A stretch of 64,000 nucleotides of DNA from Clostridia bacterium (GTDB lineage: Bacteria > Bacillota > Clostridia > UMGS1810). The first letter of the stretch is position 1. The number at the start of each line of letters is the position of its first letter. This document shows positions 19,800-48,093 of this stretch, piece by piece. The stretch is from assembly GCA_045530725.1 (NCBI GenBank), contig JAZSCT010000034.1, positions 7,396-71,395 of the forward strand, in the 5' to 3' direction. Position numbers and translations under genes: made by a program. The notes beneath the pieces were generated by a model. That model did no database searches. It had not been told where the DNA came from and worked only from the letters and a program-made list of their open reading frames with translations.

Positions 19800-20669
19800 A
19801 TGAAAAATATCACCAATACACTTATTTGTGTGCTCTTTGTAATAGCACTTTCAGGATATGGATTTTGTTCATTTTTTATAGAGCCGGGAGTGGATGAAAC
19901 CTATGCGGCAATCTCGGATAAAACTGAATCACAAGGGGGAAATATCCCGTCTTTTATGTATCATCTTGTAATAGACGATAAGAGTAAGTCGGGAGAATAT
20001 GTGATAACACCCGAAGAATTTGAATCAGATGTTACATATCTTATAAATAATGGATATACTCCCGTATTTGTATCAGAGGTGTCACGCTATTTTAAGGGGG
20101 AAGGTGTCCTTCCTCACAAACCTGTCCTTATTACCTTTGATGACGGATATTATAATAATTATCTCAATGTATTGCCCATTTTGAAAAAACATAATATAAA
20201 AGTCAATATTGCTCTGATCGGCAAATATACCGAAATGTATTCATCAAATGGGGAGATAAACGAACTTTATACCCACCTTACATATGATCATATAAGAGAA
20301 ATGTCAGAGTCAGGTCTTGTGGAGTTTGGAAATCATACTTATGATATGCACAAAATTACTGCCTTAAGACGAGGTGTAGAAAGAGCGGGCCTTGAAAGTG
20401 ATGAGGAATACAGAAAAGTACTTTATGAAGACTTTATGAAAATCCATAATGATATAAAGGAAAACTGCGGTATAGACCTTAAATACTTTGCTTATCCATA
20501 TGGATTTTTGTCAGATACGGCAGAAAGTGTCTTAAGGGATATGGGATATAGTGTGTTTCTTACCTGTGAGAAAGGTAACAATACTGTATCGGAAAAGTCA
20601 ATAGATACAATAAGACTGAAAAGATACAACAGACCTTCAGGAAAGGGTATAGCAGAAATCCTCAAATAA
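19800..20669 (+). CDS. polysaccharide deacetylase (NodB homology domain), membrane anchored
   Basis: An N-terminal TM segment, then LITFDDGYYNNY and FGNHTYDMH motifs. ATG 19800 chosen because GTG 19782 lies inside the upstream stem-loop. Confidence 0.8.
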   Translation: MKNITNTLICVLFVIALSGYGFCSFFIEPGVDETYAAISDKTESQGGNIPSFMYHLVIDDKSKSGEYVITPEEFESDVTYLINNGYTPVFVSEVSRYFKGEGVLPHKPVLITFDDGYYNNYLNVLPILKKHNIKVNIALIGKYTEMYSSNGEINELYTHLTYDHIREMSESGLVEFGNHTYDMHKITALRRGVERAGLESDEEYRKVLYEDFMKIHNDIKENCGIDLKYFAYPYGFLSDTAESVLRDMGYSVFLTCEKGNNTVSEKSIDTIRLKRYNRPSGKGIAEILK

Positions 20670-20672
20670 AAA

Positions 20673-20709
20673 CATACCAAAAGGGACGGTCCCTTTTGGT
20701 ATGTTTTTT
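20673..20709. terminator. bidirectional terminator between the deacetylase gene and trmD
   Basis: 14-bp stem CATACCAAAAGGGA/TCCCTTTTGGTATG with a CGG loop, flanked by an A-run and a T-run. The two genes converge on it. Confidence 0.8.
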
Positions 20710-20754
20710 CATTTTTTACAAAAGAAATCCCTCCGATTTTTCAGAGAGATTATA

Positions 20755-29395: not shown

Positions 29396-29540
29396 TATGA
29401 CACAAACTACACATTAATCCTAAAAATGTATATAAACAAAGAAAATACCATAGTATGCTATGGTATTTTCTACATTATGTAATTATAATTCATCTTTTAT
29501 TATCTTGCATTTTTGCATTCCAAAGGATTTTTACATTTCT

Positions 29541-30802: not shown

Positions 30803-32854
30803 TTAATCACGTATATGTTCGATTTCTTGTTCTTCAATAGGTTCATCAAGTTTAACACCGAAATACTGAGCAAATGCTGCTTTTGCTATAGGTGCAACGC
30901 TGCTTCCGCTGCCTGCACTTTCCACAACTATTGAAATAGCAATTTCAGGTTTGTCATAAGGAGCAAATGCAACGAAGAGCCCTGTTGCATTACTGCCCAC
31001 CACCTGTGCAGAGCCTGTTTTGGCACAGACTTTTACAGGAAATGATGCAAATGTTGAACTGGCTGTACCTTTTGAAGCAACACTTCTCATACCTTCTTTG
31101 ACAGCATTTAAGTTCTCTTCTTTTATATTGAGTTTATCAAGAACTTCTGGTTTATTAATCAATGTGCTTTTTCCCGAAACGGGATCAACAACACTTTTTA
31201 CAAGATGGGCCTTGTATCTTGTGCCACCGTTTGCAATGGTAGATACATAAGATGCCAACTGTATTGGCGTAAAAAGATTATATGATTGTCCTATAGCACT
31301 CTGTACAGTATCACCCGGATACCATATTTCATCAAAATGTTTTTTCTTAAAATCAGGGGATGCAACAACTCCCGATGCTTCGCCTTCAAGTTCAATACCT
31401 GTCTTCTGTCCGAGCCCCAGCAATGTGGTATAATCCACAAGGGTATCAATCCCGAGTCTGTGCCCTACTTCATAAAAATAATAGTTGCAGGACTCACTTA
31501 TTGCCTTTGACACATCAGTAAACCCGTGTGTACCACCTGTCTGAGACCAAATCCAGCAGTTGAAGAATCTGTCAAGTAGTTTATATCTGCCTTCGTCTTT
31601 AATAAGTTCATCATAAGTAATCTTGCCCTCTTCAAGTCCCGCAATAGCCGTAAGCATTTTGAAAGTAGAACCGGGAGCATATGTGCCGCTTATAGCGCGG
31701 TTAAACATTGGTTTGACAGGGTTTTTGTATAATTCATCATAATCTTTATCGAAATTCTCAAGACTGTAGGTGGGATAATTTGCAAGAGCAAGGATTTCGC
31801 CTGTATTCACATCCATGCATACAACTGAACCTGCCTGAGGGTTGGATTCCGAATCTTTGGAATGATACAATCTGTTTATAGTGTTTTTCAACGCTTCTTC
31901 TACAGTTTTCTGCAGTTCAAGGTCAATGGTAAGGATAGCATTATCTCCTGCGATTGCAGGGATTTCTTCGGTGCTTTTTTCTACATTGCCATCTACTTTA
32001 TATTTAACACTGCTGAGTCCATCCTGACCTTTGATGTAGGATTCAAGGTATTTTTCCAGACCATCTTTTCCGATAATGGAATTAAAAGAATACCCTTTAT
32101 CCTTCATAACTTCATATTCTTCCCTATATATAAGTCCGACTCTGCCGAGAATATGAGATGCAAGTCCATCATAAATGTAACTGCGTTTTGGTTGAGTTTT
32201 GATGTAGATATTACCAAACGAGGATGTGTTTTCTTTTATTTCGCTTACCATATTAATGTTTGCATTTGCAGAAAACACAAAGGGATTTGAATAACTGAAC
32301 AGTCTCTTTTCCATTTCATAACGGATACCGATTATATCCCTTATTTCATCCTGACTGTAGTTACCAGACACGCCATATTTCTTTTTAAGTTCATTGATTT
32401 TTTGTTCAGCACTAAGGTGCTTTTTTTCATCTTCGGACAAAGAAAACTCTTTGATGAGTTCCTTTCTTTTCTCTTCTGAATAATTTTCAAAAAGATACTC
32501 ATAAGGATAATAAGAGATTTCCAATGCATCACGATATGGTTCTCCGTATTTTTTAAAAAGAGAAGTAACCGATAATATTTCCTCGTTTAACTGCTTGTCA
32601 GTTTTGTCGGAAGAATATTTGATTTCAATCTGAAAACCATTCTCATTGGTTACAATAGGTCGTCCAAGTCTGTCAAGGATATTTCCTCTTGGAGCACTGA
32701 TGACTTCGGAATAACTCATTCTGATATTCGACTGCTCATCATACTCTTTTCCTTTTACAATCTGAAGATAAAACAATCTGTATGTAATTAGAAGTACAAG
32801 AAATATAAAGACAGCAATAATGATTAAAACTTTTTTATCATTTTTATTTCTCAT
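30803..32854 (-). CDS. mrdA: penicillin-binding protein 2 (elongation transpeptidase)
   Basis: N-terminal TM segment, then SxxK (GSTFKM), SxN (SESCN) and KTG (AKTGSAQ). Overlaps mreD by 4 nt. Confidence 0.88.
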   Translation of the reverse strand: MRNKNDKKVLIIIAVFIFLVLLITYRLFYLQIVKGKEYDEQSNIRMSYSEVISAPRGNILDRLGRPIVTNENGFQIEIKYSSDKTDKQLNEEILSVTSLFKKYGEPYRDALEISYYPYEYLFENYSEEKRKELIKEFSLSEDEKKHLSAEQKINELKKKYGVSGNYSQDEIRDIIGIRYEMEKRLFSYSNPFVFSANANINMVSEIKENTSSFGNIYIKTQPKRSYIYDGLASHILGRVGLIYREEYEVMKDKGYSFNSIIGKDGLEKYLESYIKGQDGLSSVKYKVDGNVEKSTEEIPAIAGDNAILTIDLELQKTVEEALKNTINRLYHSKDSESNPQAGSVVCMDVNTGEILALANYPTYSLENFDKDYDELYKNPVKPMFNRAISGTYAPGSTFKMLTAIAGLEEGKITYDELIKDEGRYKLLDRFFNCWIWSQTGGTHGFTDVSKAISESCNYYFYEVGHRLGIDTLVDYTTLLGLGQKTGIELEGEASGVVASPDFKKKHFDEIWYPGDTVQSAIGQSYNLFTPIQLASYVSTIANGGTRYKAHLVKSVVDPVSGKSTLINKPEVLDKLNIKEENLNAVKEGMRSVASKGTASSTFASFPVKVCAKTGSAQVVGSNATGLFVAFAPYDKPEIAISIVVESAGSGSSVAPIAKAAFAQYFGVKLDEPIEEQEIEHIRD

Positions 32855-45790: not shown

Positions 45791-47413
45791 TCAACTAATA
45801 TTGAAATTGTTGGGGAAATTTTTTGACAAATCTTTAAGTTCGGAAAAAATCCCTTCATCATTGTCATCGCTACCTTTGTCAAAGGTAATATTTATATTGA
45901 CAGAAATCTGGAATTTTTCTTGTATAGCCTGGCAAATAAGATTCTTTGCATCAGTCTGGTTGAGTTTCATATAATTTTCGTGATTTTCAACGCAAATATA
46001 AATCTCATCATTTTTTGTATAAAAGGATGAACCCATAAGGGCTGTGCATATCTCTATGTGACCGTTAGCAAACATCCATCCGTTGATTTCGTCCTTGTTG
46101 AGCACAATATCTTCCATAGAAGATACAGATGAATCAGAAGAAACAGTTGCACTTGTTTCTACCTCTTCAACATCAGGCTCATAAACTTCTGTTTTTTCTT
46201 TTGCAGGACAAGAATCCTCTTTGGAAACAGTAGTATTAACGGATTGAACATTTACATTGAAACTTCCCTCAGATATATTCTTTTCCAAAGTGGCTATCCT
46301 TGCAAGAAGAGCCTCTTTTGAATCAGAAAATCTGGGATCAGTCATACGGATAAGGGAAAGTTCACACAGAGCCTTTACATTGGATGAAAACTTTATATTA
46401 TTTGACAATTCATTTGTGATTTCAATAGCATGGGAAAGTTTTTCCAATGTAAACTTATCTGCAACTTCTCTTATCTCTGCATTTCTCTTATTTCCTGCAC
46501 CAAGGACTTTGTCAGAATCGGTACACTTGGAAATCATAATATTTCTTAGTGCAACCATCATAGAAGAAGTGAAATTGTCGATGTTTTTCCCCTCTCTTAT
46601 AAGTGCATCAAAGGCTTCTATAACACCTTTTACATTTTCCTCAGCAATAAGAGAACAGATGTTGTATATAAATCTGTCATCTATTCCGCCTACAATCCCT
46701 ACAACATCTTCGTAAGAAAGGTCATTATCCTTAAATGCAAGGCATTGATCAAGGATGCTCAGAGCATCTCTCATAGAGCCGTTTCCCAGATATGATACAT
46801 AATTAATTGCATCGTCAGATACAATAATATTTTCTTCTTTTAATATATATCTGATTCTGTCGGCAATTTCAATCTCGCCGATGGTCTTGAAATCAAATCT
46901 CTGACATCTTGAAAGGATGGTTGCGGGAACTTTGTGTACTTCTGTTGTGGCAAGAATAAACACCACTCCCTGAGGTGGCTCTTCAAGGGTCTTTAGAAGT
47001 GCATTGAATGCACCTGCAGAAAGCATATGAACTTCGTCAATGATATAAACTTTGTATTTTGCAACGGTTGATACATATTGTATCTGTTCAATAATCTGTC
47101 GGATATTATCTACGCCTGTGTGTGAAGCGGCGTCCATTTCCACCACATCAAGAATAGTCTCATCGAGAATCCCCTTACACATTTCACATTGATTGCATGG
47201 ATTCCCGTCTGTGGATTGGGTACAGTTGATTGCTCTTGCAAATATCCTTGCGCTTGAAGTCTTACCTGTACCTCTTGTACCTGTAAAAAGATATGCATGA
47301 GCAGTTTTGTTGCCGATAATTTCATTTTTTAATGTAGTGGTTATATGTTCCTGACCGCACACATCATCGAAAACAAGCGGTCTCCACTTTCTGTATAGTG
47401 CTTTGTAAGCCAT
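45791..47413 (-). CDS. dnaX: DNA polymerase III subunit gamma/tau
   Basis: MAYKALYRKWRP, GTRGTGKTS, a Zn module CNQCEMC, and IDEVHML. Start moved to ATG 47413. The 73 extra codons in the ORF track run through a repeat element. Confidence 0.92.
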   Translation of the reverse strand: MAYKALYRKWRPLVFDDVCGQEHITTTLKNEIIGNKTAHAYLFTGTRGTGKTSSARIFARAINCTQSTDGNPCNQCEMCKGILDETILDVVEMDAASHTGVDNIRQIIEQIQYVSTVAKYKVYIIDEVHMLSAGAFNALLKTLEEPPQGVVFILATTEVHKVPATILSRCQRFDFKTIGEIEIADRIRYILKEENIIVSDDAINYVSYLGNGSMRDALSILDQCLAFKDNDLSYEDVVGIVGGIDDRFIYNICSLIAEENVKGVIEAFDALIREGKNIDNFTSSMMVALRNIMISKCTDSDKVLGAGNKRNAEIREVADKFTLEKLSHAIEITNELSNNIKFSSNVKALCELSLIRMTDPRFSDSKEALLARIATLEKNISEGSFNVNVQSVNTTVSKEDSCPAKEKTEVYEPDVEEVETSATVSSDSSVSSMEDIVLNKDEINGWMFANGHIEICTALMGSSFYTKNDEIYICVENHENYMKLNQTDAKNLICQAIQEKFQISVNINITFDKGSDDNDEGIFSELKDLSKNFPNNFNIS

Positions 47414-47467
47414 ATTGCACCTCTCATTAAATAAAATTTGTACTTTATGTTTATATTTAAAACTAAG

Positions 47468-47583
47468 AGTGATTGAAAACAGAAAAACTTTGTCAAAGAA
47501 GGAAAAAGCGCAGTTAATCTTTGAGTACTTACGAGCATTTTGACGAACTTCTAGCGGAGTTTTTACGTTTTCAAAACATATGA
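47468..47583. repeat. copy A of a ~116-nt imperfect-palindrome element (dnaX-proximal)
   Basis: Aligns with 47643-47759 with 6 substitutions and 3 one-nt indels. Terminal inverted TTGAAAAC...GTTTTCAA. Confidence 0.85.
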
Positions 47584-47642
47584 AGTTGTTTTGTTCCGTT
47601 AAACCTGAATGAGTAACAAAATATGGTAGCATATGTTAACGA

Positions 47643-47759
47643 AGTGATTGAAAACAGAAAAAACTTTGTCAAAGAAGGAAAAAGCACAGTGAATACTTTG
47701 TGTATTCACGAGCATTTTGACGAACTTTGGCGGAGTTTTTACGTTTTCAAAACATATGA
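47643..47759. repeat. copy B of the ~116-nt imperfect-palindrome element (SRP-RNA-proximal)
   Basis: Same unit 175 nt further on. Apex is a perfect 8-bp stem GTGAATAC/GTATTCAC (47689-47709). Confidence 0.85.
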
Positions 47760-47784
47760 TAATATATTTTGTTACGAATATTTA

Positions 47785-48058
47785 AAAAGCCGTACGATTG
47801 AAAATCGAAATACCGTCATCGCACGCTTTCTTATAAAACGACTCAGACCAAGCGACCTTGTGTCACATACAGAAAACTGCTTACGGCTGCTTGGTTCCCC
47901 ACCTGACCGGGTTCACAATCACCATATTGCACAAGACTTGATCATCAACACCGTCTCATAAGTGCTGCTACAATGAAGATAATCCTCAAATCAATCATCA
48001 CCCTTGCTATAGCGGGTTGCAAGTTCAGGGCACCGCTACCGCCCCGGTTGTACGACTG
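47785..48058 (-). ncRNA. ffs: signal recognition particle RNA, long Bacillus-type with Alu domain
   Basis: The minus strand reads ...GGCGGTAGCGGTGCCCTGAACTTGCAACCCGCTATAGCA (Alu domain) and CCCGGTCAGGTGGGGAACCAAGCAGCCGTAAGC. The latter is domain IV with a GGAA tetraloop and a compensatory UGG/CCA stem. The 5' AGUCGUAC pairs with the 3' GUACGGCU, followed by UUUUU. Conserved position upstream of dnaX. Ends accurate to about 5 nt. Confidence 0.85.
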
Positions 48059-48064
48059 AAATCT

Positions 48065-48093
48065 ATTATACACTATCGATATAAATATTTCAA
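48065..48093 (-). promoter_or_regulatory. sigma-A type promoter for SRP RNA
   Basis: On the minus strand: TTGAAA (48093-48088), 17-nt spacer, TATAAT (48070-48065). Confidence 0.6.

Follow-up and report, generated by a model that had tools for sequence, protein, structure and literature searches.

Hairpins between the SRP RNA gene and dnaX of a Clostridia bacterium are probably worn copies of an uncatalogued MITE-like element

Background

Inverted-repeat MITEs flanked by TA are well known, among them Correia, ERIC, and RUP, the last being attributed to IS630-Spn1 (PMC2229807). RUP of Streptococcus pneumoniae and Correia/NEMIS of Neisseria insert at TA, are present in ~100 or more intergenic copies, and fold into long stem-loops once transcribed (PMC2229807). 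ERIC (IRU) of Enterobacteriaceae is ~127 bp long and folds into a single hairpin. Within the Firmicutes, bcr1 (Group A bcr) of the Bacillus cereus group is ~155 bp long, is flanked by 5-bp direct repeats, folds into a cruciform of 2 stem-loops, and is transcribed (PMC3184786).

The present analysis concerns 2 hairpins in the spacer between the SRP RNA gene and dnaX of a Clostridia bacterium genome (G000), located in a 64,000-nt stretch of DNA that was analyzed as a whole and is referred to as the window. Through these hairpins the window is connected with an uncatalogued repeat family that occurs in high copy number in uncultured Clostridia of the gut and rumen. Similarly to bcr1, this family is a small non-coding dispersed Firmicutes repeat with short flanking direct repeats, its presence varies between close relatives, and its single-strand fold is kept by compensatory changes (PMC3184786). 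Unlike bcr1, however, it is 278–280 nt long (short forms take 116–170 nt), has TA flanks and a branched fold of helices P1, P2, and P3, and shares no sequence with bcr1. In common with RUP and Correia/NEMIS it is a MITE with terminal inverted repeats and 5'-TA-3' termini (PMC2229807), but the Clostridia element is longer and its branched fold covaries over the whole length. Moreover, while the inverted repeats of the 107-bp RUP match IS630-Spn1, no IS630-type transposase is detected in 67 genomes of the bacterial family that carries the Clostridia element. As for ERIC/IRU, the common features are an imperfect palindrome, TA flanks, and occurrence in both orientations inside operons and between genes (PMC2229807, PMC3184786). 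ERIC, however, belongs to another host clade and has no sequence relation to the Clostridia family, and the short forms in the window are ERIC-like in shape only.

Taken with the evidence presented below, the spacer hairpins are best explained as worn copies of a protein-less MITE-like mobile element and not as a dnaX control element, with a probability of roughly 0.85. The family is uncatalogued, but of a known kind, and at the SRP-dnaX locus it is represented by an ordinary MITE-like remnant.

Layout of the SRP RNA-dnaX locus

The large SRP RNA gene occupies positions 47790..48055 on the minus strand (Rfam RF01854, 154.6 bits) and has a promoter TTGAAA-17-TATAAT at 48065..48093 (−) with 11 of 12 matches. 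On the same strand dnaX spans 45791-47413, with the ATG start codon at 47411..47413 and the ribosome-binding site GAGAGGTG, read from the sequence and conserved in the same-genus genome G001, at 47418..47425 (−). The spacer between the SRP RNA gene and dnaX is thus 376 nt long. Its sole promoter-like site, TTTAAA-16-TATTAT at 47759..47786 (−), lies between the SRP RNA 3' end and the second hairpin copy; it is weak, and its 9 of 12 matches are no better than chance.

The dnaX N-terminus MAYKALYRKWRP aligns from residue 1 (Met at 47413) in 22 relatives. Since dnaX of the relatives always begins at this methionine, the 73-codon extension that produces a 613-aa ORF starting at 47632 is spurious, as the earlier note had supposed. 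The 112-aa plus-strand ORF at 47623-47961, also suspected there, is likewise not genuine, as the SRP RNA gene overlaps it. No credible ORF is found in the 116–280-nt element, and both spacer ORFs are artefacts of the inserts, which gene callers may report and annotation pipelines should not.

Hairpin copies in the spacer

The spacer was initially described as 2 copies of an imperfect palindrome, and this description holds: copy A (47468-47583) and copy B (47643-47759) share 92.4% identity over 118 BLAST columns (E = 3e-41) and differ, as counted from the alignment, by 6 substitutions and 3 single-base indels, mostly at the apex. Each copy is an imperfect hairpin with the stems named previously, including the 8-bp apex GTGAATAC/GTATTCAC of copy B at 47689-47709, which is intact in copy B and degraded in copy A. 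The repeat unit, however, extends further on one side than was originally reported, to 47598 in copy A and 47776 in copy B.

Copy A, a decayed short-form element at 47468..47598 (+), scores 84 bits on the plus strand with the hairpin covariance model R1. It consists of the hairpin core (47468-47583) and a remnant of the right inverted repeat (47584-47598), with the left inverted repeat lost and the apex degraded. Copy B is a complete short-form element with flanking TA at 47614..47774 (+), the 2 TA dinucleotides being at 47614-47615 and 47773-47774. For its hairpin core at 47643..47759 (+), R1 gives 114.4 bits on the plus strand against 28.9 bits on the minus strand. The left terminal inverted repeat (47613..47637, +) is 25 nt long and 88% complementary to the right one (47751..47775, +), with which it pairs; both are conserved in G001, and the ends of copy B resemble the inverted repeat of a short-form element at G001:C17.

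According to the comparison with shuffled sequences, copy B is structured on both strands, with folding energies of −40.8 kcal/mol on the plus strand and −28.8 kcal/mol on the minus strand (z = −7.8 and −5.7, respectively), and copy A shows no significant structure (z = −1.8 and −1.0). With the arms included (47613-47776), the fold of copy B reaches −60.7 kcal/mol on the plus strand versus −47.1 kcal/mol on the minus strand. The apical 8-bp stem with its 5-nt loop at 47689..47709 (+) has the conserved context AAAAGC-ACA-stem-GA-GC-A-TTTT, in which the apical helix covaries and the A4/U4 helix shows almost no variation. Read on the minus strand, the copy B apex resembles a weak terminator-like hairpin followed by TGTGCTTTTT, and the apex together with UGUGCUUUUU on the SRP-dnaX strand is scored as a weak terminator-like site. 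Elsewhere in the window, R1 gives 2 weak matches at 20664-20716 (−) and 29430-29478 (+), which have 17–18 bits and E = 0.05–0.09 and are probably due to chance.

The spacer in related genomes

The SRP RNA was located in 24 relatives and its distance to dnaX was measured. Of the 13 genomes of the same family outside the genus, 12 have a spacer of 25–67 nt and one has a spacer of 111 nt, and none of the 13 has the hairpin there; over all relatives outside the genus the spacer does not exceed 67 nt in 16 of 21. A spacer of 25–67 nt is too short for a promoter, so that dnaX presumably relies on read-through transcription initiated at the SRP RNA promoter. Long inserts of the hairpin kind are seen only in G000 (376 nt) and G001 (416 nt). 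In G002, the third sampled species of the genus, the contig ends inside the spacer; copy A can nonetheless be seen.

The position of copy A, adjoining the dnaX ribosome-binding site, is thus common to all 3 sampled species, but its decay differs between them. In G000 both arms are kept and the apex is lost, in G001 the apex is perfect and the distal arm plus 53 nt are gone, and in G002 the apex is changed. The inverted repeats around copy B are common to G000 and G001. Together, the shared positions, differing interior, and decay in the alignment of G000 and G001 indicate that the insertions in the spacer are old, nested, and in decay. The G001 interior between the repeats of copy B (L044:~1810-2010) is a different sequence of ~200 nt with repeated GTGAAGTT/AACTTCAC words and small palindromes.

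Full-length element and its fold

As alignment of the flanks reveals, the hairpin constitutes a single domain (P3) within a larger conserved element with sharp conservation boundaries and a length of ~278–280 nt (275–281 nt in nearly all copies). In full-length copies the terminal inverted repeats form a 20-bp helix that covaries between subfamilies: the sequence of the terminal repeats is wholly different, and the pairing is always kept. Typical ends read TA|GGCATAACAGACTCGAAC...GTTCGAGTCTGTTATGCC|TA, and TA is present on both flanks in most full-length copies. The helices comprise P1 (the inverted repeats, 20 bp), P2 and P2a around a small conserved hairpin, and a long P3 (26+7+8 bp), with some loop sequences being invariant. 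Short derivatives that retain only P3, of 116–170 nt, exist elsewhere too; the window copies are of this hairpin-only kind, and their core is the apical domain of the full-length element.

The fold is conserved. RNAalifold applied to 22 non-redundant full-length copies (alignment A3) reports 80 pairs, 62 of which have changes on both sides. The fraction of paired cells is 93.3% versus 71.5% in shuffled alignments, and the covariation score is 0.555 versus 0.171, with none of 500 shuffles reaching either value. When the partners are slid by 1–3 columns, pairing falls from 93.3% to 35–53% (at most 52.7%).

As for the folding strand, G-U/U-G cells outnumber A-C/C-A cells overall (120 vs 41), and the ratio is more pronounced in P3 (61 vs 7). 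The orientation of the element (E) relative to neighboring genes is mixed, with 27 cases of <E<, 18 of >E>, 12 of <E>, and 10 of >E< based on crude ORF calls. Because both orientations occur, strand-biased mutation cannot explain the G-U excess, which suggests that the fold of one strand is under selection. In the window the selected folding strand is the plus strand, antisense to both SRP RNA and dnaX. The earlier note placed the structure on the transcribed strand; R1 scores, the G-U excess, and fold energies instead put the selected fold on the opposite one.

Two kinds of partial sequence were also observed. Palindromes of ~48 nt, which represent the 2 terminal inverted repeats of the element back to back with no interior, are found at G017:C28:3393-3440, G017:C149:5150-5200, G051:C123:16980-17030, and in L080 around 6656; each is either an element that has lost its entire interior or a footprint resembling that of excision. 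A stretch resembling the inner-domain hairpin (GTCGTCCTCGCAAGGCACCAAGCCTTACTTCGTCC) is located at L022 (G000:C57:34912-34956, minus strand), where it stands alone, outside a full element and downstream of a terminator-like hairpin.

Copy number and distribution

Besides the spacer copies, G000 contains a third one, a hairpin of ~170 nt between grpE and dnaK (C57:~31942-32110), which has the same apex and outer stems of other sequence that are yet still paired, as well as a full-length family member at C52:~2665-2925. In a BLAST search of 40 relatives the 58-nt core turns up repeatedly within this bacterial family, and contig ends are a frequent location. The R1 model, built from 14 diverse copies (alignment A2) with 38 pairs, 30 of which have compensating changes, matches in 58 of 67 same-family genomes, with ~760 matches in total and up to 53 scored copies per genome. 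Many matches are at contig ends, and many have identical scores inside single genomes; such runs of identical scores indicate recent amplification. The many scattered intergenic copies are the distribution under which the earlier note would have assigned the repeat to a generic MITE/REP family.

An exact-pattern scan of species-representative genomes yields 81 loci, all of which belong to MAGs of uncultured Clostridia of the gut or rumen; the gut samples include those of human (Hadza), goat, and yak, and some of the MAGs are labelled Oscillospiraceae or Acutalibacteraceae. No family copy was matched in reference plasmid and phage collections; in IMG/VR a single contig matches, and it is identical to the contig of a MAG match. 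Rfam 15 reports no family at gathering score or credible E-value for the spacer, 3 other G000 loci, loci of 10 relatives, or a canonical full-length copy; the matches are at chance level, such as lactis-plasmid at 18 bits and some miRNA and snoRNA models.

Insertion sites and transposase partner

A filled site and its empty counterpart were compared between the 2 genomes of the genus. The filled site at G001:C17 reads GAA-TA-[~165 nt, ends CAAAAATTATGTTGTGCG...CGCACAAAAA]-TA-ATTTTTG, and the orthologous empty site at G000:C64 reads GAA-TA-GTTTTTG with a single TA, the flanking genes being orthologous and adjacent. Duplication of the target TA is therefore seen at this one filled/empty pair, with the reservation that TA is palindromic and could belong to the inverted repeat.

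Some element ends also coincide with stop codons. Of 116 ends of full-length elements, 6 provide, through their terminal TAG, the stop codon for an adjoining ORF of 150 codons or more, compared with 0–2 at other offsets (−120 to +60). With a threshold of 60 codons no enrichment of stop codons is detected, and the spike at offset 0 appears only for ORFs of at least 150 codons. This pattern suggests insertion into the TA of TAA or TAG stop codons. Individual ends whose TAG serves as the stop of a long flanking ORF (297–1338 codons) are found in L057, L061, L004, L080, L103, L109, and L130.

With respect to a mobilizing enzyme, the IS630-type Pfam domain DDE_3 is above cut-off in 0 of the 67 genomes, which are MAGs and often lose IS contigs. 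No longer autonomous element is detected, as pairs of inverted repeats in ~150 fetched loci are nearly always ~250 nt apart, and pattern searches of element-rich genomes for an autonomous parent return nothing but MITE-sized pairs and very small palindromes made of the repeats alone. For plain DNA transposition, in turn, so strong a fold on one strand throughout the element is more than is needed.

Discussion

Among the explanations offered earlier for the spacer hairpins, an insertion of the MITE/ERIC type is favored by the dispersed high-copy family, inverted-repeat ends, TA flanks, and presence or absence between species. The option of a dnaX leader or processing element fails because the element is absent from the SRP-dnaX spacer in every other genus examined. 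The spacer comparison shows that an ancestral short spacer (~25–67 nt) received the insertions in the lineage of the genus, with dnaX probably transcribed by read-through from the SRP RNA promoter. Mobility would proceed by TA-targeted insertion with TA duplication, presumably by a transposase acting in trans. The 92% identity of copies A and B suggests a local duplication, or gene conversion that followed an earlier insertion. The window copies are most likely tolerated passengers, and they are oriented so that the SRP-dnaX transcript gets the weaker structure. Locally, the single effect that seems plausible would be a longer, structured dnaX 5' leader, with at most a partial loss of read-through at the weak terminator-like apex of copy B. 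Selection for such a leader role is disfavored since copy A decays in all 3 species.

The same observations bear on the idea that the hairpins are a selected cis-acting leader, attenuator, or processing site that separates SRP RNA from dnaX mRNA or sets the dnaX level, which we regard as extremely unlikely. Their location between the SRP RNA 3' end and the dnaX ribosome-binding site would suit it, as would the terminator-like apex that copy B has on the minus strand, its significant structure there (z = −5.7), and the copy A position kept in 3 species of the genus. However, spacers in other genera (25–67 nt) do without the element, and within the genus copy A has lost its apex in G000 and an arm in G001 and has an altered apex in G002. 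In addition, the same element occupies hundreds of unrelated sites in both orientations, and its selected fold is on the strand opposite to the dnaX transcript. The latter property would be expected if the copies were genes for a small structured plus-strand RNA antisense to the dnaX leader, with the family being a multi-copy functional RNA. The excess of G-U over A-C in P3 on the plus strand of the element (61 vs 7), compensating changes in 62 of 80 pairs, invariant loops, and the R1 score of 114 bits on the plus strand versus 29 bits on the minus strand agree with this explanation, and bcr1 of Bacillus provides a precedent of a transcribed mobile repeat with compensatory changes (PMC3184786). 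We nevertheless consider it improbable: no plus-strand promoter is predicted beside the window copies, the copy A apex is lost, orientation to the neighboring genes is mixed, and the many identical copies per genome indicate recent transposition rather than conserved genes.

Strand-specific G-T wobble pairs would fit single-stranded DNA as well, and the element might accordingly act as folded single-stranded DNA that serves as a transposition or recombination substrate, as in IS200/IS605, REP/RAYT, and integron attC. The lack of a detected DDE partner and the proximity of some copies to serine or tyrosine recombinase genes are in line with this reading. In IS200/IS605 the two ends of an element are unlike and no duplication is made, whereas the present element has genuine inverted repeats flanked by TA and, at one site, a duplicated TA. 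Relative to flanking genes, which stand in for replication direction, element orientation shows only a weak bias (27 vs 18), and the ends do not match the R'/R'' attC consensus as judged by eye. The chance that the element works as a single-stranded substrate is therefore rated as very slight, and an IS200/IS605-derived or REP-type identity, for which dissimilar ends carrying subterminal hairpins, a lack of duplication, and a pronounced orientation bias would be expected, was rejected on the grounds of ends, TA duplication, and weak orientation bias. Several other candidates were dropped based on sequence reading, namely CIRCE, the apex of which differs; bridge and omega RNAs, for which there is no adjacent ORF; and integron attC, retron, and a K-turn reading of the GC-ACA...GA-GC loop.

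Returning to the MITE-like element itself, it is unlikely, though less so than the readings above, that the 278–280-nt family is more than a passive parasite, with its RNA or single strand taking part in mobility or with the host having recruited it as a functional RNA. This possibility arises because of the near-fixed length, the compensated branched fold on one strand, the invariant loops, and the absence of an IS630-type partner in 67 genomes. If true, the window hairpins would be stripped-down copies of an active module. The strand-specific fold and the missing transposase partner are the only parts of the analysis that could give new biology.

For the window, a false lead is removed, namely the SRP-dnaX spacer as a dnaX control element. 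For the wider group of genomes, the family breaks MAG assemblies and sometimes supplies the stop codons of neighboring genes, and a family model would aid annotation and mask false riboswitch or sRNA calls. G000 also carries a second, unrelated dispersed repeat of ~150 nt, with ~20 copies of 73–94% identity. It is located at L159:1700-1868 and G000:C64:56584-56738, and also in C31, C55, C52, C58, C40, C1, C57, C59, C17, and C47.
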